DNA of 43,251 bases from Folioceros fuciformis (Eukaryota). The notes under the pieces were generated by a model that searched no databases, had not been told where the DNA came from, and was given only the letters and a program-made list of their open reading frames with translations. Of this stretch, positions 2,705 to 30,322 are shown piece after piece; within the stretch, counting starts at the first letter, position 1, and each line of letters opens with the position of its first letter. Location of the stretch: positions 52,834-96,084 of the forward strand of contig JBNGIO010006264.1 of NCBI GenBank assembly GCA_049999805.1, written 5' to 3'. The position numbers and the translations under genes are program-made.

Positions 2705-5700
2705 TCACGGTCGACCCTTACAACTGCAACTACCATCTGCGAATCGATGTACACATACCCGTCGCCCACAACGACGTCTCTTTGTTCAAGCCTTGACATG
2801 ATCTCCGTGGAACTGTGACAGTCACTGCACATGCGTAGATTCTTCGTTACCACAAGAGGTGTTCCGCTCGGAGTGTTCAACAGGCCAAACGCAAGAGCTA
2901 GCTTGTCGGCATGCCCACAAAGGGCATCTTCCTTTTCCTTCTCATCCACTGGCTTCAACAACAACTTTGTGTGAGGTACGTGGCCCCCCTTCCTGCTTCA
3001 GACGTTCATTTGTGCTCTCCACCTTAAGCGCAATGTCCTCTCTCCTTTCTCCCACTAGAAACTTGTGTACCTCCTTACTCACCTCAATGGTCGCTACTGC
3101 AGGTTTCTTGTTAGCAGCTGCTAGCTTTCTCTGCGCTTCTATCCTGTCCACATCGATCCACCTACCTGCATCTGCGTAAGCATTGGCCATGAGCACATAT
3201 GCAGGCGCATCCTGGGGGTCCAGCCGAACAATCCTTTCAAAACACCATTCGGCCCTCTCTATATCCCCGTGACTTTTGCTGGCATGCAACAAAGACCTCA
3301 AGCCCACAAGATTACTTTGGTCATCACATGAAAGTAGCATCTTCGCTGCCTCATCTAAAAGGCCCGCACGCCCCAAAAGATCAACCATGCAGGTGTAATG
3401 CTCAACAGTAGGTTGAATACCATGCTGTTCCGCCATGGAATCAAAGTACTTGCGACCCTCCTCCACTAGTCCCTCGTGACTGCATGCTACTAAAAGGAAA
3501 GTGAAAGTAGTACCATCAGGCGGAAAACCGGCAACTAACATCTCCTCGAAACAAGCAACTGCTCTCTGACCATCATCACAAGAACCATACCCATCTGTCA
3601 GGGCCGTCCATGTCACCACATTCTTCGTTTTCATGCTGTCAAAAACTTGGCTTGCATCTTCCAGTTCACCACATTTTGCATACATGCCCACCAGGCAGGT
3701 GCCCAGCACTACGTTGTCCAGCAGTCCGTTTTCGACGATCTGTGAGTGCAGCTGCCGTCCTTGCTGTATGGCACCAGTGCTTCCACACGCCTTCAGAAGG
3801 CAAGCAAACGTAACATCGTCAGCCAAAATCAGTCCCGCTTCCTCCATTCGCCCATACACAACAAGCGCCTCCTGGGGGCATTCTTCCTGTGCATACCCAG
3901 ATATCAGGGCGGTCCACGTCACCACATCCTTTGTCTTCATGCTGTCAAAAACCTGGCGTGCATCTTCCGCCTGACCACATTTTGCATACATATCCACCAG
4001 GCAGGTGCCCAACACTACATTATCCACCAATCTTCTTTCAACAACTTGAGAGTGAAGCTGCCTGCCCTTCTGTCAGTCACCAGTTCCTCCACAGGCCTTC
4101 AGAAGGCAAGCAAAAGTAACATGATCAGCCAAAATGAGGCCTGACTCCTCCATTTGGCCATATACAACAAGGGCCTCTTGCCCGAGTCCTTGCTCTGCAT
4201 ACCCAGACATGAGGGCGGTCCATGTCACCACATCCTTTGTCTTCATGCTGTCAAAAACCTGCCGTGCCTCTTCCATCTGACCACATTTTGCATACACGTC
4301 CACCAGGTAGGTGCCCAACACTACATTATCCACTAATCCCCTTTTGACAACTTGCGAGTGAAGCTGCCTGCCCGTCTGTAAGGCTCCAGTGCTTCCACAG
4401 GCCTTCAGAAGGCAAGAGAAAGTAACATGATCAGCCAAAATGAGGCCTGACTCCTCCATTTGGCTATACACAACAAGCGCCTCTTGCCCCAGTCCTTGCT
4501 CTGAATACCCAGACATGAGGGCGGTCCATGTCACCACATCCTGTGTCTTCATGCTGTCAAACACCTGGCGTGCATCTTCCAGTTCGCCACATTTTGCATA
4601 CATGTCCACTAGGCAATTGCCCAACATTAAGTTATCCAGGAGTCCTCTCTCAACGATCACAGAGTGCAGCTGCCTACCCTTCTGCAAGGCACCAGAGCTA
4701 CCACAGGCCTTCAGAAGGCCGGCGGCAATGACATGGTTGGCTAAAATCAGCCCCTCCTGCTCCATTTGTCCATAGAGAGCAAGTGCCTCATGTCCTAGTC
4801 CTTGGTGGGCATACCCAGCAATCAGGGCATTCCATGTCACCAAATTCTTTGTCGCCATGCTGTCAAAGACCTGGCATGCAGCTTTCAGTTCACCCGTTTT
4901 GCATAGCCGGTTATGAGGCTATTCCATGTCACCACATCCTTTGTGGCCATGCTGTCAAAAACCCTGCGTGCCTCTTCCAGTTCGCCACATTTTGCATACA
5001 TGTCCACCAGGCAGTTATCCACAAACAAGTCAGGAGGAATGCCACAGTGCAGCAGATCACCGTGCACTTTTCTGCCAGATTCCAAGTCAGCGGCAAGTGC
5101 ACAAGCCTGAAGGGCGGCTACAAAGACGCCGCTCGCCTTCACCCCTGACCTACTCAAGTCGTGGTACAGTTGTATGGCCTTCTTAGGTTTCCCATGTTTA
5201 GAGAATGCAGAGATCATGGAAAAGTACATGAAAAAATCTGGTTTGCCCACCCTGGTGAACACGTCCATTGCCTCCTCCAGCCTACCTCCAGCCTACCTCC
5301 AGATGCGTACATGCGTAAGATATAGTTCGCCAAGTATGGATTCGAACGGTACCCAAGTTTGACAGTGAGATCATGAACTCGTCGCCCCACAACTAGATCC
5401 TTCTTAGCTGTACACAGTTTCAGCACAGTGCAAAACAGAGAGTGGGAAATAGCAGAGCCTGTCCGCGCCAGAGATTCCAGGGCCTCAGCGGCCTCAGAAA
5501 GCTTCCCCTGCTCACATAATGTGCTTACGGTTACAGGCGTAACGAGGCCCATTTCCTGTCCTGCACTCTTGCGAGATTCAGGCTTGTCCGCAGAGCGGGA
5601 CTCGGAAGGAGAGGCACCACTACTCACGTGCATATCCAAGGAAACGAGCCGTTCATCAACCCAAGCTGGCTTAAACATGTTGGTTACCCACAGCACCTCT

Positions 5701-6032
5701 ACGGAGCCCTTCCGCCGGAAATCAGGCGAACGGGAGCTCTTCTTATCTTGTCTGTTATCCCACCACATGGTCGGGTCCAGAAAGAATTGTTGCCACAAGC
5801 GCTCCTGCTCCTGTTCCTGCTCCTGGCGACGCCAATCTTTGGATAAACCGTCCCCACCCACATACCTGTCCGGAAGTTTAAGTGCTGAGCCCCTCACACT
5901 GCTGCACCTGGAGGCTTGGTTTCCCAAGGATTGACTCCCTAACATGGGGTGAGCAGGAGCTCCTCCTAGAATCCCTGTACCCAAACCAATCTGTTGGGTA
6001 CACAACGGATCCTGTTGCCACGCTGTGGCCAT
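2705..6032 (-). pseudogene. Disrupted PLS-class PPR-E-DYW:KP (GRP-type) gene with N-terminal PDF-like motif; paralogue of 7543-10017
   Basis: ORF pieces 5214-6032, 4885-5268, 4073-4858, 2942-4030 and 2653-2964 are collinear with the intact neighbour. Lesions: 11-bp duplication (CCTACCTCCAG, about 5281-5302), 1-bp deletion near 4893, in-frame TGA near 4073, extra G near 2985, 1-bp deletion near 2752. The ancestral frame ends ...CSCKGRP* at 2705. The deaminase motif reads HADKLA. Confidence 0.9.
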
Positions 6033-7542
6033 GGCTCAGGAACCTCTGTGGGAAGATGTCTGGCAACAAACGTCGGCAGGATGTTGGGGTAGACATGGGG
6101 TCACCACACCTGTGACCCCACTCCCCCTACCTTAAGCGCTTCTTTCCACCAACCAACTTGTGACAAGCCCAAAAATTGTACTTGTCCATAACAAAAACAG
6201 GCGGAAAACTAATAAGAGCTAAGACTACACTTCCGACTGATCCGCAATCGGATGGATGGTAACAAAATTATTTTTCATTTTCACCAGCTATGGTGAGCAA
6301 GGCCTTGAGCATGCGTCGGCGGCGCCATCAGGGCTGGGTAGTCCGGCTGCGGACCTAGTGAAGGCTGCAGCAAATACATGTCGTGCCACTCTTACATGAT
6401 CAGATCGCGCAGCACCTGGTGGGATTTTGATGACGAGCCTCAGGTTCTTCCCAAGCCTTGTTTTTGGAGTCAGCCTTTCTCAATCCAGCACATCAGGACA
6501 ACTGAGCTCATTCAGCAGGTAGGCAGACTAGGAATACAACCTAAGCACATTTCCCTTGCAATAGGTGCAAGGATGAACGGCAGCGGTGCCGGCGTGGACC
6601 GCAGATTTCAGACCATTGCTCAGATGACGGACGCACTTACACTGTTGTGGTGCACCTCAGATGACGGACAGAACAAACCAGTGGACCAAAACAAGCACGG
6701 TGACAGAACGACGTTCTGTTTCGCACTTGATTCCCGACCAATTATCAATGTCTAAATTACGGGCCTCGTCACAAGTTTATCCAAACTGACAACACACAAT
6801 TCAACTGAGTTCATACATACAATCGCGTTTGGATGCAGTACAGTGTGTGCGTTCGGGGATTTCTCCAGTACGAAGACAGGTGAAGCAAATACCAATCCTC
6901 TCCACTGGAAGGCCCCTGAAGTGTAGAGATCAGGAAATTGGACTATAAAGCCCTCCAGATATTTCAGTGTGGATATTTCCTCCAAACCGTCCAAATGCCT
7001 CCGACCACCTTATTCTCTTGCAGAAGGAGCTAGGGATAGTGCGTGCTTTGCAGAACACTATTCGCCGGAATAACCTCCTGTGTGCTTCCATCCACCTGGC
7101 AGTATTTACATGTTATGTTGCTTCTATAGCGCAGAAATCGACAAACTGTCTTGCCCGAAAAGAGGTGGACAATGGATCAGATATCTAGCTGGGCTTGGGA
7201 CATGCTAGTTTAAATCAAGCAACGTTGAGGTGATAGGCCTGGCTACATCTGCCTTAGAACTGGTTCCATGGCTCACATAGTACAGCGTCTTGTAAGCATG
7301 TAGGCCAAACATGGAGGCATGCTGGGCCCTGCATTAGTGAGCTCGTAACGTACCAGAGAGCTCAGAATTTGTGACCTGGAGACCTGTGGTCAAGGATAGG
7401 CTCAAGGCTATGCTGTTTTCCACAAGTTCCAACGGTAGCCGCTTTTGACGGGGATGGAGTAAAGCGAGAACATTCACCCCGACCAAAAAAAGGCAGTATT
7501 CTTTGACATGCACACGCAACACTGGCGATGCAGTTCGTACTC

Positions 7543-10017
7543 TCACGGTCGGCCCTTACAACTGCAACTACCATCTGCGAATCGATGCACTCGGAACCCA
7601 TCCCTTACAACGATGTCTCTCTGTTCAAGCCTTGACATGATCTCCGTGGAACTGTGACAGTCACTGCACATGCGTAGATTCTTCGTTACCACAAGAGGTG
7701 TCCCACTCGGAGTGTTTAGCAGACCAAACGCCAGAGCTAGCTTCTCAGCATGCCCGCAAAGTGCATCTTCCTTTTCCTTCTCACCCAGAGGCTTCAACAC
7801 CAACTTTGTCTGGGGTACGTGGCCCCCTTCCTGCTTCAGACGTGCATTCGTTCTCTCCACCTTTATGGCAATATCCTCTCTCCTTTCACCTACCAAAAAC
7901 CTATGTACCTCCTTATTCACCTCAATGGTTGCCACTGCAGGTTTCTTGTTAGCTCCTGCTACTACTCTCTGTGCTTCAATCCTGTCTACGTCGCTCCACC
8001 GACCTGCATCTGCATAGGCATTGGCCATGAGCACATAAGCAGGCGCCTCCAGGGGGTCCAGCCTAACAATGCTTTCAAAACACCATATCGCCCTCTCCAA
8101 ATCCCCATGATTTTTGCAGGCATTCAACAAAGACGTCAATCCTACAACATTACTTTGGCCATCGTATGATAATAGCATCATCTTCTCTGCCTCATCTAAA
8201 TGGCCTGCACGCCCAAGAAGATCTATCATGCAATTGTAATGCTCAAGAGTAGGTTTGATTCGATGGTCAGCCATGGAATCAAAGTATCTGCGGCCTTCGT
8301 GGACCAGTCCCTCATGACTGCATGCTGTCAAAAGGCAACTAAAAGTAGCATCACTAGGCTCAATACCAGCAGCTAACATCTCTTCAAAACAAGCTAGTGC
8401 TCTCCGACCATCATCACAAGCACCATACCCAGATATCAGGGCATTCCATGTCACGACATTCTTTGAGTTCATACTGTCAAAAACCTGGCGAGCATCCTCC
8501 ACTGCACCACATTTTGCATACATGTCCACCAGGCAAGTGCTCAATACTACATCATTCAGCAGTCCTCTTCCCACAATCTGCGAGTGCAGCTCTCTGCCCT
8601 TCTGTAAGGCAGCAGTGCTTGCACAAGCCTTCAAAAGGCAAGCAAAAGTAAAGTGGTTTGCCAAAATAAGGCCCTCTTCCTCCATTCGTTCATACAAGGC
8701 AAGCGCCTCTTGGCTGAGTCCTTGCTGTGAATACCCAGCAATAAGTGTCGTCCATGTTACCACATCCTTTGTGGGCATGATGTCAAAGACCTGTCGAGCA
8801 TCCTCTAGTTCACCACATTTCGCATACCCCGATATCAGGGCATTCCATGTAACCACATTCTTCGTGGCCATGCTGTCAAAAACCTGGCGTGCAGTTTTCA
8901 ACTCACCAAATTTCGCATATCCAGATATCAGGCTATTCCATGTCACCACATCCTTTGTGGCCATCCTGTCAAAAACCTGTCGTGCATCTTTCAGTTCGCC
9001 ACATTTTGCATACATGTCCACCAGGCAGCTGCCAACAAACAGGTCCAGAGGAATGCCACTGTGCAGCACATCACAATGCACTTTTCTACCAGATTCCAAG
9101 TCAGCAGCAAGTGCACAAGCCTGAAGAGCAGCCACAAAAACGTGACTATTGGCCTTCAGTCCGGACATACGCATGTCATGGTACAGTTGTATGGCCTTCT
9201 GAGGTTGGCCATGTTTAGAGAATGCAGACATCATGGAATAGCACATGAATGTATCTGGTTCGCCCACCCTCTTGAGCACATCCAACGCCTCCTCCAGCCT
9301 ACCGCCGGACGCGTACATGCGTAAGATATGGTTCGCCAAGTATGTATTCCAACGGTACCCAAGTTTAACAATGAGATCATGAACTCGTCGCCCCACAACC
9401 AGATCCTTCTTAACTGTACACAGTTTCAACACTGTGCAAAACAGAGAACGAGAAATAGCAGAGTCTGTCTGCGCCAGACATTCCAGGGCTCCAACGGCCT
9501 CAGAGAGCCTTCCCTGCTGGCATAACGTGTTCACGGTTTCAGCAGTAATGACGCCCATTTCCGACCGTGCACTCCTGGGAGCTTCAGGCTCACCAGGAGG
9601 GCTGCACTCGGAAGGAGAGGCACCATGACCCATGTGCATATCTAAGGAAACGAGCTGGTCATCTACCCAGGCTGGCTTACACAAGCTGCTAAGCCACAGC
9701 ACCTCACCGGAGCCTTTGCGCCTGAAGTCAGGCGAACGGGAGCTCCTCTTATCTCGTCTGTTATCCCACCACATAGTAGGCTCCATAAAGAATTGTTGCC
9801 ACAAGCGCTCCTGCTCCTGCTCTTCCCCACCCACGCATTGACTCGAGAGTGGAACTGGAAGAGGAAGGGCTATGCTCCTGACATTAGTGCGCCTGGAGGC
9901 TTGGTTACCTAGGGATTGACTCCCTGACGTGAGCGGAGCGGGAGCTCCTCGTAGAATCCCTGTAAACAGGCCAAATTGTTGGGTCCACAACCGGTCTGGT
10001 TGCAGCACTGTGGCCAT
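7543..10017 (-). CDS. PLS-class pentatricopeptide repeat protein with E1/E2 and DYW:KP (GRP-ending) deaminase-like domain; candidate organellar U-to-C editing factor; 824 aa, intronless
   Basis: L-S-P-L-S-SS-SS-P-L-S-P2-L2-S2 repeats, E motifs, KKPAVATIEV (KP box instead of PG box), HAEKLA, KNLRMCSDCH, and C-terminal HRFADGSCSCKGRP. Confidence 0.95.
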   Translation of the reverse strand: MATVLQPDRLWTQQFGLFTGILRGAPAPLTSGSQSLGNQASRRTNVRSIALPLPVPLSSQCVGGEEQEQERLWQQFFMEPTMWWDNRRDKRSSRSPDFRRKGSGEVLWLSSLCKPAWVDDQLVSLDMHMGHGASPSECSPPGEPEAPRSARSEMGVITAETVNTLCQQGRLSEAVGALECLAQTDSAISRSLFCTVLKLCTVKKDLVVGRRVHDLIVKLGYRWNTYLANHILRMYASGGRLEEALDVLKRVGEPDTFMCYSMMSAFSKHGQPQKAIQLYHDMRMSGLKANSHVFVAALQACALAADLESGRKVHCDVLHSGIPLDLFVGSCLVDMYAKCGELKDARQVFDRMATKDVVTWNSLISGYAKFGELKTARQVFDSMATKNVVTWNALISGYAKCGELEDARQVFDIMPTKDVVTWTTLIAGYSQQGLSQEALALYERMEEEGLILANHFTFACLLKACASTAALQKGRELHSQIVGRGLLNDVVLSTCLVDMYAKCGAVEDARQVFDSMNSKNVVTWNALISGYGACDDGRRALACFEEMLAAGIEPSDATFSCLLTACSHEGLVHEGRRYFDSMADHRIKPTLEHYNCMIDLLGRAGHLDEAEKMMLLSYDGQSNVVGLTSLLNACKNHGDLERAIWCFESIVRLDPLEAPAYVLMANAYADAGRWSDVDRIEAQRVVAGANKKPAVATIEVNKEVHRFLVGERREDIAIKVERTNARLKQEGGHVPQTKLVLKPLGEKEKEDALCGHAEKLALAFGLLNTPSGTPLVVTKNLRMCSDCHSSTEIMSRLEQRDIVVRDGFRVHRFADGSCSCKGRP
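9652..9810 (-). other. OSB-type PDF-like motif inside the PPR gene
   Basis: ERLWQQFFMEPTMWWDNRRDKRSSRSPDFRRKGSGEVLWL...PAWV matches my recollection of the PDF motif of organellar ssDNA-binding (OSB) proteins. A second copy is at about 5645-5805 in the pseudogene. Confidence 0.82.
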
Positions 10018-10884
10018 GGTTCAAGAACCACTGTGTGAAGATATCTAGCATTAAACTAGGAGAGGATGCCCGTTTCGACTTGTGTATGACCAGGGACCCG
10101 TCTCAATCGATCCCGGACAACGGTTCTCCATCTTAGCTATCCTTCCCAGCTAGCAACTTGTGCAAAGTAACAAATCTGGAGCAAAATGCCAGCGGAAAGC
10201 AATTGGACTTGCTTCAAATTGATTCAGATTTTCATTTTCAACAAATTGGTTTTCCATTTACACCGCTCCCGATTGACAAGGCTAGTGTCCTTCGGCGGTG
10301 TCTGGTTCACGGTTACAGGGCCACTACCATCACGTCCTCCACCAGGTAATCATGTGTTTACCCGTGAGAATATGTGTTTGCTGAAAGAAAGCTAAATTAG
10401 ATTATATAAAATAATTAGCACAGTGAGGACAATGTTATGCCCGAGCGTCAGTCAAGTCGTTTGTACATTGCACAATCTTTGGAAGTAGCAATTTATGAAA
10501 TTAACGAGCTCTTGTGGAGAAGCAAAGAAGGCTAATGTTTTTATTATTATTTTATTGGATATTACTTGCTAAAGTCTATCTTTTGGTTATTTGATAAAAA
10601 GAACTTATTTTCTTTACCTCTGTATTAAAGAAGAAGTGGTGCAAATAAAAGAAGAAGTGGTGCAAACAAAGGGGGGTGAAGAAGAAATTTTCCTTTACAA
10701 TCTACTATGTCTAGGACACAATCTCCACTCGTGTTCCCAGTATATTGAAATCCGAACAAATTAGAGCTTATTTGAATGAGGACCCTTTCCACATAAAGCA
10801 TTTGATAGATAGGTTCACAAATTTAGCAGTTTATCTTCTCACAAGGTAGAAGATGGGATTGGTTTTCCTCTTCTTATTGGCACA

Positions 10885-18634: not shown

Positions 18635-21600
18635 ATGGCGGCAGACCAATCCTCTGACCGCTTGCAGGAGAAGGATCGACTTACTTCTCATAAGTTTGAT
18701 GCTTGGTCGTTTAGGGTTGGGTGCATTCTTGAGGAAAAACTTCTGATGGATGTCACTGATCCTAAGAGGGTGGCTGGTCAGCCATCTGGCACATTGACAC
18801 CAGGTGGTGTCAATTATGTGCCTTGAACTCAAAAGGATGCAATGGAATGGAATCACAAAGATAGAAAAGCAAAAACCACATTGGTTGGATCTGTTTCACA
18901 GGAGATGATTCCTCGCATAAAGTTGGCCAAGCATGCTCACGGTGTCTGGACTTTGCTGAATGATATGTATGAAGCAAAGGATATGATCTCAGTTGGAACA
19001 GCCACTGTTCATGGGCAAAATCTGCGCATGAGAGAAAATGAGTCAATTGAGGGCTTTGTTGCCAAGTTTAGGGCAGCAACAGCCAGACTTGCTGCATGTG
19101 GAGTTCTCATTGACGATAGTCGAGTTGCTGTTCAGTTTTTGTTAGCCCTTCCTCCAAGCTGTGAAACTTGGAGTTCGAGTATTCAAGCAACAGCACCTGT
19201 TACCCCAGCAACTACGTCCCTAACTGTTCAGAAGTTAGTTGGAGCCCTGCTGCAAGCAGAAGCCAACAGAAAATACATGAACAGCAAGGGTTCTTCAAGC
19301 TCTTCACATAAGCAAAGTGATACTGCTTTATGGTCAAGTCACGGTAGAGGTCGTGGCAGAGGAAGAGGACGTGGACGAGGAAGTTTGGTAGAGGTAGAGG
19401 ACAAACGTCTAGGCCTGACCCTAACTTCAGTTCACAACAGTCAGTGAAGAAAACTGGAGTGTGCAACTACTGTCACAAGCCAGGGCACTGGGCAAGAGAT
19501 TGCAGACTCAAGCAAAGAGATGATGTTGGAAAAGGAAAACAACACGAAATAAATGTGACAAGAGCAACAACACCTAGTTTACTTGCGTCTTGTCTCTCCT
19601 CAGTTACAACTAGTAAGAACCAGTGGTTCTTAGATAGTGGGGCTTCTAACCACATGTGTTCTTCTAAGAAGTCTTTTCTCAACAACAGAGAGGCTCCGAG
19701 TGAGCATACTGTTGTTCTGGGAGATAATTCCCACATTCCTATTAGAGGGATAGGAACAGTTGTCATTACCCTGCAAAATGGCAAGACTTGGGAGTTAGAA
19801 AATGTGTTGCATGTTCTAGCATTGAAGAAACATCTCGTGAGTACTATGGCTTTGGGAAAGATAGGCCTGTACAGAGTCCTGTTTGAGGGCCTTGAGTGTG
19901 TCATAACCAAAACAAACACACCCACAAATGTCATTGCTAGATGCACCCCCTTCTATGACCTGTACATACTCGATTTTGTTTCAGATGTCCCTCCACAGTC
20001 TGTACAATTAACAGAGAAGGGAGTTAGTAAGTCTTCCCTTGCATTTAAATGGCACTGCAGGTTGGGACATCCAAACATTCAAGCTGTGAGACATTTGCTC
20101 AAAGAAAAGATGGTGACAGGTTTCTCTGAGTCCGACTTACCGGATCTAGATCTTTGTCTTGCTTGTGTGCATGGCAAACAGTTTAAATCTCATTTTGGAT
20201 CTGGTAAGCCTAGAAGACAAATGCAAGTGCTGGATTTAGTGCATACTGACATCTGTGGTCCGATGTCTACACCAAGTTGGGGAGGAGCCAGATACTTTGT
20301 GGAGTTTGAGGATGATCGTACCCATTTCACTGTCACTGAGCTGTTGAAACATAAGAGTGATGTCTTTGACAGTTTTAAAAGATACCTGGCATATGTCGAA
20401 CGTCAAACAGGTTTTCAGTTGAAATGTATCCGTTCGGATAATGGGAAGAATACCTATCACATGTGTTTCAGGAGTTTTGTCAGGAACGTGGCATTAGTAG
20501 ACAGCTTACAATTCCATACCACTCAAATATGAATGGCAGAGCAGAACAAAGACACAAGACAATTTAGGATGCTGCTCGAGCTCTTTTGTTCCAGGGGAGG
20601 TTACCTATTCGCTTCTGGGCTGAAGCTGTTCAGGCGGCAACCTATTTGCAGAATCGTACTTCTGTGTCTTCTCTTCTGAAATGCATGCCCTTTGAGTTAT
20701 AGACAGGTGTCAAGCCTAATGTTGCACATCTTCGAGTATTTGGAAGTACAGCCTACGCCCATATCCCAGACAAGCTTAGACAAAAGTTTGCATTTAAGTC
20801 TAGACGACATGTGTTTATAGGTTACACACTTGGGATACACGGATATAAACTTTTTGAGCCTGTCTCCAGACGTGTTGTCCATGCTCGGACAGTTGCTTTC
20901 GATGAACAAGTTGTGCTGAACCCTCCTGATGATTCACCTCCTGTAGAGGCTGAGTTAGCTCCAGCACTTGATCAGTTTGATGTGTTCGAACCAGAGTTTT
21001 TCGATATTGTTGACTTCCCTCTGTTAATCCTGATCCTCCCGTTCAGCCATCCTCCACATCTGATCCAGTAGCTCCTGTTCTTTTAGATCCTTTAGATGCT
21101 GAGTCGGAAGACCACCTAACTGATACTCAGTCTCAACCTGAGCCAAAGCCAAGTCTGGAGCCCGAGCTTGGTGTTGATGATCCTGTTGAATATACTCTTC
21201 CTGTCCCTGAACCTCCTGTCCCTGTTCCTCGACGTTCCACCCGTCTTCATTGTGGACGTGACCAGAGGCTGGAGACGCCCTATCAGGCTAAAGACTGGAG
21301 GGCTCAGCGACCCTTGGTTCCACCTCTCCCTCAGCCAGTGGGAGCTGCTCTTGAACCTGAATCTGTTCATGAGCTTGTCCAGTTGACTGTGCAGCCAGGT
21401 TATGAACCACATTCTTATCAAGAAGCTATCACTGGTCCTGCATCTCAACACTAGAAAGCTGCTATTACCTCCGAGTATGAATCCCTTCTTCACACTCACA
21501 CTTGGGAGCTTTGTCCCCCGCCTAAGGGGAGGAAGATCATCAGCAGCAAGTGGGTTTTTAAACTCATGTACAAGGCTGATGGGACTATAGCGAGGTACAA

Positions 21601-22992
21601 AGCTCGCCTTGTTGCTAGAGGATTCTCTCAGGTGCCGGGGTTAGACTATCATGACACTTTCTCTCCGGTTGTCAAAGCACAGTCCCTACCTGTTCTATTC
21701 TCTATGTCAGCATTCTACAGTCTGTTTATCCATCAAATGGATGTTAAGACCGCGTTCTTACATGGAAAACTGAAAGAAGAAATTTATATGCAGCAGCCCG
21801 AAGGCTATGAAGAGAAGGGACATGAAGACTGGGTTTGTAAGTTGTTGAAAACAATCTACGGCCTCAAGCAATCTCCTAGGGCTTGGTATCAGTGTATTGA
21901 CGAGTTCTTACTTGAGCTTGGCTTCAGAAAGAGTGATGCTGATTTGAATGTATATTTCCTGCAAGATGACATAGGCTTTGTAGTGTTAGCATTATATGTG
22001 GACGACTGCATCCTACTCGGTACAAACCTTGAAGGCATAAACAAGGTGAAAGGGCTCTTATCTGGCAGGTTCGATATGGTTGATGTAGGAGAACTCTCAT
22101 ACTGTCTTGGTACACAACTCCTGCGAGATACATCAAGTGGCACCCTGGTTATTCACTAAGAGAAGTATATTCACGATATGCTGTTTAAGTATAAGTTGAC
22201 AGACTCTAAACCGGCCTCAACTCCAATAGAAGCAGGCAGCAGACTTACAGCTGTGCATTCTCCCATTACTGATTCTGAAAAACTGGAGATGGAAAGTGTA
22301 CCTTACTCTCAGGTTGTTGGATCACTTATATTCTGTTCAAATCAAACAAGGCCAGATATATCACTACTTGTTAGTATGACTTCCCAATTTCTAAAACAGC
22401 GTGGAAGGACTCACTGGACAGCAATGAAATGGATACTGAGGTACCTTAAAGGAACTAGCAGTCATGGCATACATTACACGAAGCAGCAGTACGAAGGTGA
22501 GTCACTTACCTTGCTAGGGTTTTGTGACGCTGATTGGGCAGCAAATCCAGACTCCAGGAAATCAATCTCGTCATATGCATTCTTGCTGGCTAGAGGAGCG
22601 GTTACCTGGTCATCTAAGAAACAGACCACAGTGTCATTGTCGTCCACAGAGTCAGAGTATTATGCTCTCACTCAAGCAGCCAAAGAAGCAATCTGGCTAC
22701 GAAGGCTTCTTAAGGACTTAGGGCAAGAGCAGAACAGCCCACGACAATCTATTGTGACAGTACTGGAGCTTTGTCACTCGCAGAAAATCCCGTATTCCAT
22801 GCGAGGACTAAACACATTGAAGTGCATCATCACTTCATTCGTGGAGCAATATCCTTAGGTCAGATACATTTGAAGTATGTCCCTACAGACTCAAACGCAG
22901 CAGACGTGTTAACAAAAGCACTACCTAAAGGTAAACATCATCAGCTTAAAGAAGCTTTAGGAGCCCTGGACTCCTCTTACCTTTCCAAGTAA
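18635..22992 (+). pseudogene. Copia A gag-pol polyprotein with frameshifts and stops
   Basis: Gag with RG repeat and CNYCHKPGHWARDC knuckle; protease WFLDSGASNH; WHCRLGH and LVHTDICGP/IRSDNG integrase; RT YKARLVARG, QMDVKTAFL, LYVDD; RNase H CDADWA, RTKHIEV. Confidence 0.95.
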
Positions 22993-24496: not shown

Positions 24497-27400
24497 ATGG
24501 CTGGAGTGATTGAAGAAAAATTTGAAGCTACCCCAAACTCACCTATGGGTAATGATAATGTTCATCCTCCTACACATTATTATTTTGATGATGGTTTCAA
24601 AGAGAAAGATAGATTCAACGGGAAAGATTATGATATTTGGGCATTACGTATGCGAGGAGCATTGAGACAAAGAGCATTATGGGGCATTGTTGATGGATCC
24701 ATAACGAGACCAAGGTCTGATGATGAACGTGAACTTTAGATTTCCTGGGACGCCAGGGATGAGAAGGCACAAGATTTGTTAATAAGTTGACTCTCTCAAC
24801 AAATGGTCAGGCATGTTGCACATGCAAAAACATCTCATGAAATGTGGTCTCACCTTGCTCAATTATATTCATCACAAGATGTAATGAGCATTGTGGCAGC
24901 TTCTCGTAACTTCCGTAATTTATCCATGAAGGAGTCCGACACTATTGAACATCATATTAATGCTTTTAGACAAGCATGCTCCCAAGTTGAATCTGCAACT
25001 GGTGTACCTATATCTGAGATGGAAGCTTATGTAACCCTTCTATCTTCATTGCCTCCCTCCTATCGTCCATTCATCACTCCTCAAAACGCAGTTATTCGTA
25101 ATTCACGGAGAACTGCAGATGATGGGACAAAGGGTTTTGACATAAGTGTTTCTGAATTGATCGGAGCACTGCTACAGGAGGAGGCAAGTAGGCACCATTC
25201 TCACTCCAGGCTTAATAAACAACAAGTAATGTACTTGCAGAGAGGCAGAGGAAGAGGACGAGGCAGAGGCCAAGGTTTTTCTTCCCAACGTCCTCCATAT
25301 TCTTCGCCGAGTACCAACATTGGAGAGAGTTCTTCATCCACACCTTCAAAGGATAAAAAGAAGAGCGGCATTATATGCAATTGGTGCAGGATTTCTAATC
25401 ATACAGAAAAGGATTGTCGCAAAAAGAAGAATGGTGAACCTTGCAAGGAGGCTTCACAAGGAGTTAATGTAGCTTCCAAAATGCAATCTTCATCAACTCC
25501 AACAGTGCTCACTGTATGTTTGGCATCATCCAAACCTGCTAATACCTCATGGTAATTAGACAGTGGAGCAACATCACATATATGTTACAACAAAAGTTAT
25601 TTTCAGTCATACTCACCAACCACAGGACATCAATCTATCCTCTTGGGAGATGATCACAACCTACCTATTGAAGGTACTGGTTCTATTGTACTAACATGTG
25701 ATTCATGATAAGTCCTCCACCTCCACCAAGTTCTCCATGTTTCATCAATGTGCAAGAATTTATTATCAGTTGCAAGTATTTGTCAAACCCATTCCATGCA
25801 AGTGACCCTTTTTACAGATAGTTGCTTTCTCTCTCATGTAGGTGATAGCAATCATATCATTTGTAGTGGTACTTTAGAAGATGGCCTTTATAAATTGTCT
25901 GTTCTAGTAGGAGGTCAACAATATGCTCATGTCGCCAGTTCTTCGCCTCAAAGTCCCTCTCCCACAATGTTATGGCATTGTCGTCTTGGTCATCCAAATA
26001 GTCAAAAATTAGTACAGATGTCTAAGGCAGGAAATTTATATCGCACACCCTGCCTCTCTCACATTCAACACCTCTCATGGTGTGAGACTTGTGTCATCTC
26101 CCCACAGAGGGCGAAATGTCCTCTAGAGCTTGTTCATATAGATATTTGTTGCCCTATCTCTACACCTTCTTTCAGTGGTAGCAGATATTTTATGACCTTC
26201 ATTGACGACTACTCTCGGTTTACCCTTATCTATATCTTAAGTCATAAAGGAGATGTTTATCGTTACTTCCAAGACTATATGGTATGGGCTGAGAGGTTAA
26301 CCGAAAAGAAACTCAAAACCTTACGTTCTGATAATGGTGGCAAGTTCACTTCCAATCAATTTACGGATTTTTGTCGCCTTCACGGTATTGCTCAACAACT
26401 TACTGTTGTTTATACTCCACAACAAAATGGCGTAGCTGAAAATAAGAATCTACGTCTTCAAGAGATTACTGGCTACCTGTTAAACCAAGCAAATTTACCT
26501 AAGGTATACTGAGCCGAAGCACTCCTCACAGCCACATATCTCATGAATCGACTGCCCACTTCAGCAGTCCAAGATATGACACCTTATGAAGCCTTTATAG
26601 GTAGAAAGCCCTCCATAGAACACCTCCGCATTTTTGGATTTCCGGCATATGTATTTGTCCCCAAGGCATTAAGAAGGAAGTTCGACCCAAAGGCCGTAAA
26701 ATATACCTTTATTGGTTATTCGGAAGGAATCAAGGGTTATAAATTGTTTGATCCTTCTACTAAGAGGCTTCTCTATGCTCGCAGCGTCACTTTTCATGAA
26801 CATTCCCTATTTTCATCTTCAGTGGGAAATGTTTTGCCTCCTTACCTTTCATCTAAAGATATAGAATCTGAATGTTCTTCCTTTGATGCTAGTGACTATA
26901 TTGTGGATTTTCCTGATCTCGCTCTTCGACTTCCCTTCGATAGACCTGTCATGCAGGAGGAGGAATTAGGACCTAAACTGCGTTCTGACACACCCACAAC
27001 CGACACCAACACCGACACACCGGAGGAGGAGGAGCAATTTTCACATTCATCTGATCCCCTTGAGGCCATTTCGGAAAATGCAGTACCTCCTGTTCAAGAA
27101 GACAATGATCAGTTGGAAGCTGATGATGTTGAAGAAATGGACCCTTTAGAACATGAAGATGAACTAGTTCCTGTGGAAGATACACCTGCACCAAGGTACA
27201 ACCTTAGATCACGTCCACTCATCTCNNNNNNNNNNNNNNNNNNNNNNNNNNNNNNNNNNNNNNNNNNNNNNNNNNNNNNNNNNNNNNNNNNNNNNNNNNN
27301 NNNNNNNNNNNNNNNNNNNNNNNNNATCTTCGGCCCTGCTGGTTGGAAAGAACCTCCTTTGGGATATCTTGCTATTTTTCCTGATTCTAAATCTCCTGAG

Positions 27401-29137
27401 TCTCTTTATAATCAAGCTGTGTATGCAGCCACTATAGACTTAGAGGAGCCCCTTACCCTAAAACAAGCCTTCTCCTCTCCCTCCAAACATCTACGGAAGG
27501 TAGCCGTAGACTCAGAGTATAATTCCCTTATTAGTAATTCTACATGGAAATTAGTTGAACCTCCTAAGGGTAGAAAAATAGTAACCAGCAAATGGGTATT
27601 CAAGATAAAGAGAAAAGGAGATGGATCGGTGGAAAGGTATAAAGCACATCTAGTTGCTAGAGGTTTTACTCAAGTCCCTGGACTAGACTACATACCTTGG
27701 GCCACTTATGCTCCTGTAGCTAAGTTCGCTACTATTCATATAATCTTCGCTATATGCACCCAGTATGATCTTGAACTTCATATGATGGATGTGAAAACAG
27801 CATATTTGTATGGGCGCTTGAAAGAAGAAATATATATGAAGCAACCTAAGGGTTATGAGGTAAAAGGCAAGGAGCATTTAGTATGTAAACTTATTAAGGG
27901 TATATATGGACTCAAGCAATCCGGCAAAAATTGGAACTTGACTATCCATGTACAACTCTTGAACAAGGGATTTTAGCAAAGTAAAGGTGATGCTTGCTTA
28001 TATAGTTACCTTAAGAGAAATGATAGGGTCATATCATTTCCCTTAAAGTAACTATATAAGCAAGGGTCCAATGAAGGACCCTTGCTTATATAGTTTAGGG
28101 TTTAGGGTTTAGGGACCCAAGCAAGGACCCACTTTGCTAAAAGAAACCTTTTACTATACGTCGATGACGTTTTTATGGCAACAAACTCTCTCATTCTCCT
28201 AGATGAGATAAAAGCATGGCTTCGGACATTATATGAGATGACCAACCTAGGAGAAATGAATTATGCACTTGGAGTAAATATTATCCGTGACAGGAGTAAT
28301 AAAAAGTTGAGCATAGTTCAAACCAAGTACATAAAGGAGAGTTTAGCAAAGTTTGGAATGGAAGATGCAAAGCTTGCACCTACACCCTTTGCTAGTCGCA
28401 TCAGGCTTTCCTCCGATATGAGTCCTAAGAGGGCTCAACAGAAAATGGAAATGGCATCTGTCCCATATCGACATGCTGTTGGCACTCTTATATATTTATG
28501 CAATTTCACTAGACCTGATATTTCTTTTGAAGTTAGCTCCTGCTCACAGTTTTTGGAGAACCCTGGACACCAACATTGGATGTCAGTTAAGCGTATTTTT
28601 CGATACCTTAAAGGTACTATGCATACAGGGTTGACATTTAAGCATACACCAGCAATCAAAACATTAACACTTACGGCATATGCCGATGCTGATTATGCTG
28701 GTGATCCTGATACTCGAAAATCCGTACCAGGTTATGTTTTACTTCTTGGAGGAGCCCCAATATCATGGTCGAGTAAGAAACAGCCTACCATTGCCTTGTA
28801 TAGTACTGAATCTGAATATAGAGTACTAACATCTGTTTTCAAGGATATAGTATGGTCTAGGCTAGTTTTGAGTGAACTCAATCACCCTCAGCATAACCCA
28901 ACATCTCTTTTCAGTGATAGTCAGGGCGCCATAGCACTTGCTAGAAACCCTGTTCTTCATTCCAGAACCAAACATATAGCTGTTGAGTATCACTATATCA
29001 GAGAGAAATTGGAAGATAAGACCATAGATATCAGTTATATACCAACCCAAAACAACCCAGCTAATCTGTTAACTAAATCATTAGGGAGAGATTTGCATTT
29101 AAAACACATGAAAATGTTAGGCATTCAAGAGGTTTAA
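24497..29137 (+). pseudogene. Copia B gag-pol polyprotein with stops, a gap and an insertion
   Basis: FNGKDYDIWALRM gag start, RG repeat, degenerate knuckle, W*LDSGAT, WHCRLGH, LRSDNGG, TPQQNGVAE, MMDVKTAYL, LYVDD (about 28157), YADADYAG, RTKHIAV. Confidence 0.95.
27993..28146. repeat. Foldback insertion with (TTTAGGG)3 inside copia B reverse transcriptase
   Basis: 32-bp inverted repeat (27993-28024 and 28033-28064), a second hairpin to 28095, telomere repeats at 28094-28114, and an inverted copy of 27971-27982 at 28131-28142. Confidence 0.85.
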
Positions 29138-29332: not shown

Positions 29333-30322
29333 TTACTTACTGTACAAGTGTTTGGTGTGTCCTTCGTATTCTTCACATGGGGAAGCACCCAAACACATCA
29401 TTTTTATTCCTCTCTTTTCACATACATACTCCATGGGAACTTCAAGATCATCCTTTCCTCCAGGAAGAACCAAGTAGGTTGCCTTACATAAATTACCAGC
29501 TGGCAGGTAGGAACTAGGAATTTTCTTCTTTGCACTTGCTCTCTCTTGAGTAGGTCGTAGAGGTAGGGCAAATCTNNNNNNNNNNNNNNNNNNNNNNNNN
29601 NNNNNNNNNNNNNNNNNNNNNNNNNNNNNNNNNNNNNNNNNNNNNNNNNNNNNNNNNNNNNNNNNNNNNNNNNNNCTTCTTTGCTCTCCTGTTGTTGCCA
29701 CTATAACATCCTCTATTTGGTGATCTGCACAAGGATGTGACCTCCAGCTTGGGCTACCATCACAAACAACCTGCTAGGGGGTCTCTTCTTGTTTTATGGA
29801 GTCTTCTGACTCTTTTGAATCTTCATTTATTTTGAAGTCATCATATTCGGCCTTAGTTGGCGGTGCTGGCTTCATCGGATTATCTACATCCACATTTATT
29901 AGCATTTTGTGCAATCAAAATTTTTATACAATTTATCTTGCAATTCATTGACTTACCAGTCACTTTGACTTCTCTCACAACGACCTCGGATTTTTTCATA
30001 AGCATTTGCACCACAAGACGTCATCATCCTCACCAGCTATGTCTTCACTCGTCGCAACAGGTTGACAACACCTTGCGAGAAATTCAGCACTGAAGTTAGG
30101 ATCATCTGGACCTTTCTCAGTACCTAGTATTGGTGCTGCTGCCTCCCGGAACCACACGATGTTTGCACGGTTTGCCAGTTTCCTTTGCTCTTTTCTTCTG
30201 GCAAGTATTTTTCTCTTGGCCATGCGAACTGCTTGCTTAATTTTATTAACACCCATTTTCCGGCCTCATGGAGCTGGGGGGGCATGGAGCCTCCACTCGG
30301 CGTAAACTGCAGCATCAGCCAT
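29333..30322 (-). pseudogene. Decayed antisense gene in the 3' region of copia B, possibly with an intron
   Basis: MADAAVYAEWRLHAPPAP*GRKMGVNKIKQAVRMAKRK...; candidate GTAAGT...TGTAG intron 29956-29884; further ORF pieces down to 29333; interrupted by an N gap. Confidence 0.4.

Follow-up and report, generated by a model that had tools for sequence, protein, structure and literature searches.

We analysed a stretch of 43,251 nucleotides of the Folioceros fuciformis genome (the whole stretch is referred to here as the window; assembly GCA_049999805.1, contig JBNGIO010006264.1, positions 52,834 to 96,084 of the forward strand), which holds two tandem paralogues of the pentatricopeptide repeat (PPR) family. 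Gene A (P0001) is an uninterrupted open reading frame (ORF) on the minus strand (7543..10017, stop codon at 7543-7545) and encodes a PPR-E-DYW protein of 824 amino acids (aa). Its start was placed at the first ATG downstream of an in-frame TGA, which is located 6 nt upstream. Paralogue B (2708..6032, minus strand), which was delimited by tblastn with the gene A protein, has the same layout in a disrupted form. Both paralogues carry, ahead of their repeats, a motif of the Pro-Asp-Phe (PDF) type known from plant OSB proteins. This motif, the proteins in which it stands next to PPRs and the role it may have there are the subject of this report.

The features of gene A, all on the minus strand, follow one another in a simple order. 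Residues 1-62 (9832..10017) form an N-terminal pre-sequence of low predicted local distance difference test (pLDDT) score, which from its position and composition is a putative organelle-targeting peptide. It is followed by the folded PDF module (residues 63-132; 9622..9831), delimited by homology, conserved residues and predicted fold, inside which lies the core PDF motif (residues 71-125; 9643..9807). The string RLWQQFFMEPTMWWDNRRDKRSSRSPDFRRKGSGEVLWLSSLCKPAWVDDQL occurs within this motif region, and the interval singled out in an earlier note on this DNA (residues 70-122; 9652..9810) is contained in the folded module. A disordered linker (residues 133-158; 9544..9621), recognised by its low pLDDT and low identity between the paralogues, leads to the first PPR helix. 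The PLS-type PPR array with the E motif (residues 159-691; 7945..9543) was delimited from Pfam and the structural model, and the DYW deaminase domain of the KP type (residues 692-824; 7546..7944) from Pfam and the KP hallmarks. In run X3, guessed to be RNA and represented by contigs only, the bins over the motif were covered and positions 9908-10400 were uncovered.

The Pfam scan of gene A gave PPR at 7.6e-77 in 11 stretches, PPR_2 at 3.3e-74, E_motif at 5.4e-12 (residues 637-699) and DYW_deaminase at 6.2e-33 (residues 732-822). No Pfam domain was reported on residues 1-166, the motif included; Pfam has no model of the PDF motif, which leaves a scan of it blank. With its tandem PPRs, its E motif and a C-terminal DYW domain containing HxE...CxxC, gene A is a PLS-class PPR-E-DYW protein. 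According to PMC11845758, DYW:KP domains are distinguished by KP in place of PG, by Ala or Cys instead of Ser after the zinc-binding His, and by a tail other than DYW; we observed all three hallmarks in gene A. The KP pair is at 692-693 within KKPAVATIEV (691-700), where it replaces PG; HAE at 756 (HAEKLA) places an Ala after the zinc-binding His, with CSDCH at 784; and GRP, not DYW, forms the C-terminal triplet. The DYW:KP subclass has a conserved active-site lysine, Lys88 of the 133-aa domain. If the 133 aa are counted back from the C-terminus of gene A, so that the domain starts at the KP pair, K779 (VTKNLRMC) would fall at position 88; this numbering is an assumption. The activity of natural KP proteins is stated in PMC11845758 to be still unknown. 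The earlier note had placed the motif between a putative transit peptide and the first PPR of a KP-type enzyme, and this position holds: the disordered pre-sequence precedes the motif, and the PPR array of a protein bearing the DYW:KP hallmarks follows it.

Structure prediction delimited the same module. When the motif was folded alone with AlphaFold from a 46-sequence alignment, the model reached a pLDDT of 92 and a predicted template modelling score of 0.75, and comprised two helices with two or three short strands between them (a compact helix / beta-hairpin / helix arrangement). When the first 260 residues of gene A were folded, helix 63-78, strands 83-85 and 98-100, and helix 117-132 were recovered with pLDDT values of 81-96. 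On either side of them the confidence dropped, to ~40-44 over residues 1-61, which had no secondary structure, and to ~47 over residues 133-153; confident PPR helices began at residue 159. According to these models, the PDF module is a separate, independently folded unit on flexible tethers. Structure searches named no fold for it. Foldseek against the PDB returned nothing at E<=0.001 (best 8.9), the best Z of the motif model against 48,161 chains in VIA-align was 3.8, and the sequence profile had no match among PDB chains at E<=1. Judged from these searches, the PDF motif appears to have no solved structure and no clear structural neighbour, which does not by itself prove a novel fold.

The resemblance of the motif to the PDF motif of OSB proteins, which had been noticed in the earlier note, proved to be homology. 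We scored a 58-position profile, made from both window motifs, against 1,835,955,588 protein cluster representatives; 619 matched at E<=1e-3, of which 144 reached E<=1e-10 and 15 reached E<=1e-30. The lowest E-values were 1e-61. The best 150 of the 619 matches were listed, and 149 of these were scanned in Pfam at 1e-5 (P0002 was annotated separately). The SSB domain PF00436 was found in 38 of the 149 scanned proteins, and it was N-terminal of the best motif match wherever both positions were listed, which is the domain order described for OSB proteins (PMC6963530, PMC4166229, PMC6451138). Eleven of the 150 best matches were PPR proteins and one had a kinesin motor domain, while most others were blank in Pfam at 1e-5. 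By BLASTP, the 58-aa motif aligned without gaps to the C-terminal motif of P0078, a Drosera capensis protein with SSB plus the motif that is named 'OSB1, mitochondrial-like' at NCBI, with 32 of 57 residues identical (56%; E 2e-21). A Ceratopteris protein with SSB and two motifs showed 51% and 38% identity to the window motif. A word-index search with a 65-aa form of the motif returned three candidates and a single match, and is too insensitive to serve as a census.

Fifteen PPR-linked motifs went into a second profile, A4, which matched 438 clusters at E<=1e-3, of which 120 were listed. Among these 120, 16 rows are named OSB or OSB1 to OSB4, including Chenopodium OSB3 (2.6e-72) and Eutrema OSB1 (1e-69), and they come from Chenopodium, Eutrema, Raphanus, Ananas, Prunus, Musa and others. 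A4 also matched green-algal proteins of Chlamydomonas incerta and Edaphochlamys. The PDF module has the signature W-x6-P-x2-W-x-D-x-R-x2-K-x5-PDF-x8-LW-x6-P-x-W. Over 396 near-full-length instances of the motif, W, P, W, D, R, K, P-D-F, L-W, P, W and L are at least 80% conserved. Gene A has 14 of these 14 positions. The same positions are equally conserved in PPR-linked (n=55) and SSB-linked (n=60) motifs, with the exception of the last Leu. The PDF motif is defined in PMC6963530 as about 50 aa with a conserved Pro-Asp-Phe signature, and gene A conforms to this definition, with P96-D97-F98 inside a conserved block of 55 residues. A chance or compositional resemblance is ruled out by the E-values, by the ungapped 56% alignment to an OSB1-like protein and by the matches to OSB1 through OSB4; nothing was found in its favour, and we assign it a negligible probability. 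That gene A carries a genuine OSB-type PDF motif in a real coding fusion we regard as practically certain.

Gene A is not itself an OSB protein. OSB proteins are described as carrying their PDF motif or motifs C-terminal of an SSB-like OB fold (PMC6963530, PMC4166229, PMC6451138), whereas gene A has no SSB domain by Pfam, and its motif is N-terminal and followed by PPRs. The two kinds of protein have in common a motif of ~50-55 aa, its Pro-Asp-Phe signature and the invariant W/P/D/R/K/F/L set, and in the PPR fusions, as in the OSBs, the motif can occur in one to three tandem copies.

Next, we compared gene A with paralogue B. The PDF motif of paralogue B (~5637..5801, minus strand, in the ORF 5214..6032) reads RLWQQFFLDPTMWWDNRQDKKSSRSPDFRRKGSVEVLWVTNMFKPAWVDERL. 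The earlier note held that both paralogues keep the motif while the flanking linkers differ more, and both observations stand: the motif is identical at 44 of 56 positions without a gap, against 17 of 35 in the linker (residues 126-160). The first PPRs were identical at 70 of 87 positions, and the pre-sequence at 43 of 65 aligned positions, with a further 15 gap columns. Rough Nei-Gojobori estimates of the ratio of nonsynonymous to synonymous substitution rates (dN/dS), which rest on only 11-28 substitutions per segment, were 0.35 for the pre-sequence, 0.23 for the motif, 1.66 for the linker and 0.29 for the PPRs.

The tblastn alignment of paralogue B is spread over three reading frames, -2 (6032-5286), -1 (5292-4897) and -3 (4900-2708). 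There is an in-frame TGA at 4073-4075, and the DYW region is frameshifted, going out of frame past LKQEGG and returning to frame at HRFADGSCSCKGRP. The simplest reading of the sequence is that paralogue B is probably a pseudogene. Contigs of three runs have one base fewer than the window at 2984, near the start of the disrupted DYW region, so that one or more of the frameshifts may stem from a local assembly error. The use of both paralogues as evidence of conservation therefore survives in part: the motif is kept in both, but a broken paralogue B lends weaker support to its conservation than an intact gene would.

The N-terminal region of gene A also stood out in the read depth. Summed over contigs, the depth in DNA runs X1 and X2 was ~140-170 over the bins of the motif and linker (9386..9907) and ~11-12 over the unique spacer (within 5993..7558). 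This hints at many near-identical (>=95%) genomic copies of the N-terminal region; the summed depths are not copy numbers.

The fusion is no peculiarity of this locus, as it could have seemed from the window alone, but belongs to a family that is widespread in seed-free plants. In the lists of best matches from which the following counts are taken, and which are not censuses, each of the 11 PPR proteins within the 150 best matches had one to three copies of the motif, and these preceded the repeats. Of the new close PLS homologues of gene A, 27 of 119 carried it. PPR proteins made up 51 of the 120 matches listed for A4 (48 from Diphasiastrum complanatum, one from Adiantum and two unnamed), and 11 of these 51 had a DYW domain. 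The PPR-E-DYW carrier from Sphagnum compactum combines the PG box with HSE and ends in DYW; the other named carriers are from Sphagnum jensenii, Selaginella, Diphasiastrum complanatum, Adiantum capillus-veneris, Ceratopteris richardii and Pteridium aquilinum. The motif was found in none of the 22 Cryptomeria or Ginkgo PPR proteins among the listed homologues of gene A, and no seed plant is among the named PDF-PPR proteins in the best-match lists. Database records describe the carriers as 'hypothetical protein' or plain PPR protein.

In Diphasiastrum complanatum the family is much expanded, with 48 clusters at 90% identity among the 120 A4 matches listed. Its members there have one to three motif copies and either a PG-type DYW domain or an E motif only. 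One of them, P0190, has a motif at residue 142 and a nearly identical one at residue 680, as if two genes had been joined in a single model.

The earlier note had tied this architecture to U-to-C (KP) enzymes and proposed a test for enrichment in DYW:KP over DYW:PG proteins. The architecture proved not to be special to KP enzymes, and the proteins gathered here show no sign of such an enrichment. Among the 25 motif-bearing proteins with a recognisable DYW zinc motif, a sample biased by the way it was gathered, four were KP-like and 21 PG-like; the typing was by regular expression, which missed at least one PF14432 protein (P0372). Many more PDF-PPR proteins stop at the E motif without a DYW domain. 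Three of the four KP-like proteins, P0001 (gene A), P0117 and P0175, share HAE, KKPA.A.IE and a GRP tail, and the fourth, P0254, has HAE, a DRH tail and a box that was not recognised.

P0117 (753 aa) is the closest KP-type relative found for the motif, and its layout is that of gene A. Its motif is degenerate, with RDF for PDF, CWD for WWD, DT for DP and DIR for DNR. This bears on the view that the motif is a passenger without a present function, either lost when the targeting peptide is cleaved off or left over, and now decaying, from the ancient capture of an exon. The direct adjoining of motif and pre-sequence, the probable pseudogene next to gene A and the function of synthetic KP editors that have no such module (PMC9478123) would agree with it as well. 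We consider it very improbable, given a stable predicted fold, a motif dN/dS of 0.23 that is similar to that of the PPR region, the 14 of 14 intact signature residues in gene A, and the retention of the motif across mosses, lycophytes and ferns, with dozens of genes in Diphasiastrum.

To follow the history of the motif, we built a FastTree phylogeny of 396 motif instances, omitting 52 of the 448 detected as partial or weak. Two clades hold 54 of the 55 PPR-linked motifs. The first (43 tips, 40 of them PPR-linked; support 0.87) is mainly from Diphasiastrum and Sphagnum. The second (16 tips, 14 PPR-linked; support 0.85) contains both window copies, the proteins from ferns and Selaginella, P0002, and three of KP type (P0117, P0175 and P0254). 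The non-PPR tips within both clades are mostly fragments of ~150-160 aa. The label PPR or non-PPR changes 7 times on the tree, compared with a mean of 52 (minimum 48) in 300 shuffles, a clustering that overstates independence, as paralogues share labels and many tips are from Diphasiastrum. The few label changes nevertheless argue for an ancient fusion passed on by descent, not one formed again and again. The PPR-linked motifs also show preferences of their own (for example FF, DPS and NPxWV..K). On the sequence evidence, gene A is a member of an old, widespread PDF-PPR family whose proteins, of PG type, of KP type or without a DYW domain, occur in mosses, lycophytes and ferns.

PDF motifs were also found in unusual numbers and company outside the PPR proteins. 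Five proteins, P0003 (Kingdonia uniflora, 1160 aa), P0009 (908 aa), P0004, P0011 and P0014, consist of tandem PDF arrays with 8 to 13 matched stretches, which far exceeds the one to four copies described for OSBs (PMC6963530, PMC6451138). The array proteins had no informative Pfam domain at 1e-5: four were blank, and P0004 had only DUF4927 and NifQ, without a qualifying stretch. Three PDF stretches accompany a kinesin motor domain in P0051 (Coptis chinensis, 1526 aa), and three are present in P0048 (Striga hermonthica, 1063 aa), which is named 'Interactor of constitutive active ROPs 2, chloroplastic'; both may be genuine fusions or the product of gene models run together.

Arrays of up to 13 copies, together with the two to three copies in several PDF-PPR proteins, would be compatible with the PDF domain acting as a protein-protein module that oligomerises or docks onto OSB or other PDF-PPR proteins, and AtOSB2 has been reported to be tetrameric (PMC6963530). 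The accessible part of that study does not name the region of OSB2 that drives the tetramer, however, and it reports that the motif alone is sufficient for ssDNA binding. The invariant W, W, R, K, F, W and W would also be typical of nucleic-acid contact. We therefore regard a purely protein-binding function as quite improbable.

We compared gene A with other known editing factors and PPR fusions. Like the DYW:KP factors, putative U-to-C editors, described from hornworts, lycophytes and ferns (PMC11845758, PMC9478123), it has a PLS array, an E motif, the KP pair, HAE and a non-DYW tail; unlike them, it has an extra folded N-terminal PDF module, which is unmentioned in the available text of either study. 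The synthetic KP designs of PMC9478123 start at the PPR array and have no PDF module. The RRM-PPR, MORF-PPR and other fusions catalogued in PMC13386178 resemble gene A in joining a PPR tract to a second nucleic-acid-related module, but here a PDF motif is the partner, in a fusion found chiefly in seed-free plants.

As for novelty, full-text searches of the literature turned up no description of a PDF-PPR fusion, although an earlier mention in the founding studies of OSB or KP proteins is possible. In the main text of PMC13386178, the 2026 kingdom-wide catalogue of editing-factor domain fusions, neither 'OSB' nor 'PDF' occurs. The only paper that joined the PDF motif with PPR terms mentions PPRs solely for mitochondrial RNA polymerases. 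Both parts are known, and their combination appears undescribed. PPR proteins with added accessory domains are familiar in other forms, such as PPR-SMR proteins and PRORP.

Elsewhere in the window, we observed one transcript-like feature and two mobile-element remnants. Over 6204..7582 (plus strand), positions 6515 and 6658 are adjacent in a contig of run X3, and the 142 bases between them, which have GT..AG ends, are missing from it. This suggests a spliced plus-strand transcript in the spacer between the two PPR genes that extends to the 3' end of gene A and overlaps it. Two Ty1/copia-type retrotransposon remnants lie at 18842..22858 and 24803..29137 (plus strand). Their ORFs match copia-type gag, a Pol beta-barrel, gag-pre-integrase and the integrase core, and the second remnant is broken by 100-N gaps at 27226-27325 and 29576-29675.

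What might the module do in an editing factor? PPR tracts bind RNA in parallel, with the N-terminus towards the 5' end. With this polarity, an N-terminal PDF module on a flexible linker of ~25 residues would reach the strand 5' of the PPR footprint. We propose that the PDF module stays on the mature protein, where it would complement the sequence-specific PPR tract by binding single-stranded nucleic acid irrespective of sequence. Its contact could increase affinity or prevent the site from folding, with the C-terminal DYW:KP domain acting at the 3' end. This reading of the PDF module as an accessory single-strand binder in cis is made by analogy with the OSB proteins, and we hold it with as much doubt as confidence.

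The biochemistry of the PDF motif comes from Arabidopsis. The motif of AtOSB1 was reported to be sufficient for ssDNA binding, with no contribution of the OB fold (PMC6963530, PMC6451138), and both AtOSB1 and AtOSB2 preferred ssDNA over dsDNA or RNA (PMC4166229). These reports (PMC4166229, PMC6963530, PMC6451138) are the only PDF biochemistry and concern ssDNA binding, with ssDNA favoured over RNA; they would fit a tether to nucleoids, the idea put first in the earlier note, in which the module binds organellar ssDNA in transcription bubbles or in replication or recombination intermediates, the editing factor is brought close to nascent transcripts, and editing takes place during transcription. 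The core signature, unaltered in the PPR-linked copies, is in keeping with such a tether. On the other hand, the partner domains of the module act on RNA, and the PPR-linked motifs stand apart in the tree and in their residue preferences, so that the ligand preference may have shifted. We consider a DNA tether possible but rather unlikely.

Several points count against our preferred reading of an RNA-side binder in cis. Its function is extrapolated from Arabidopsis OSB1/2, and the preference of these two proteins for ssDNA over RNA (PMC4166229) agrees better with a DNA tether than with a role on RNA. That the mature protein keeps the module is deduced from its fold and conservation only. Gene A is known here from its genomic ORF, and its tandem paralogue is broken. 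The small substitution counts behind the dN/dS values, the modest supports of the two PPR-linked clades (0.85-0.87) and the shared labels of paralogous tips soften the evidence of constraint and of descent. Finally, the degenerate motif of P0117 indicates that the module may be decaying or dispensable in some KP lineages or members.

A stronger form of the accessory-binder reading would make the module a cis-acting clamp that is required for the full activity of seed-free PLS editors, in the way that MORF helpers serve in seed plants. MORF/RIP, ORRM and OZ proteins, the trans cofactors of seed plants, could be its functional analogues in raising the RNA affinity or activity of PLS proteins; in contrast to the module, they are separate polypeptides with unrelated folds, and nothing observed here shows the replacement of trans-acting cofactors that the earlier note suggested. 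We regard a required clamp as unlikely. If it were true, natural DYW:KP and DYW:PG enzymes of seed-free lineages would edit efficiently only with the module, its addition would improve engineered C-to-U and U-to-C editors, and this would be the first function of the PDF fold outside DNA maintenance.

The fusion described here widens the known range of the PDF motif. It also sets apart a sizeable sub-family among the PLS editing factors of mosses, lycophytes and ferns, and it is relevant to the question of which parts of natural KP and PG proteins should be included in programmable RNA editors. It likewise bears on how editing factors act in lineages that edit very heavily.

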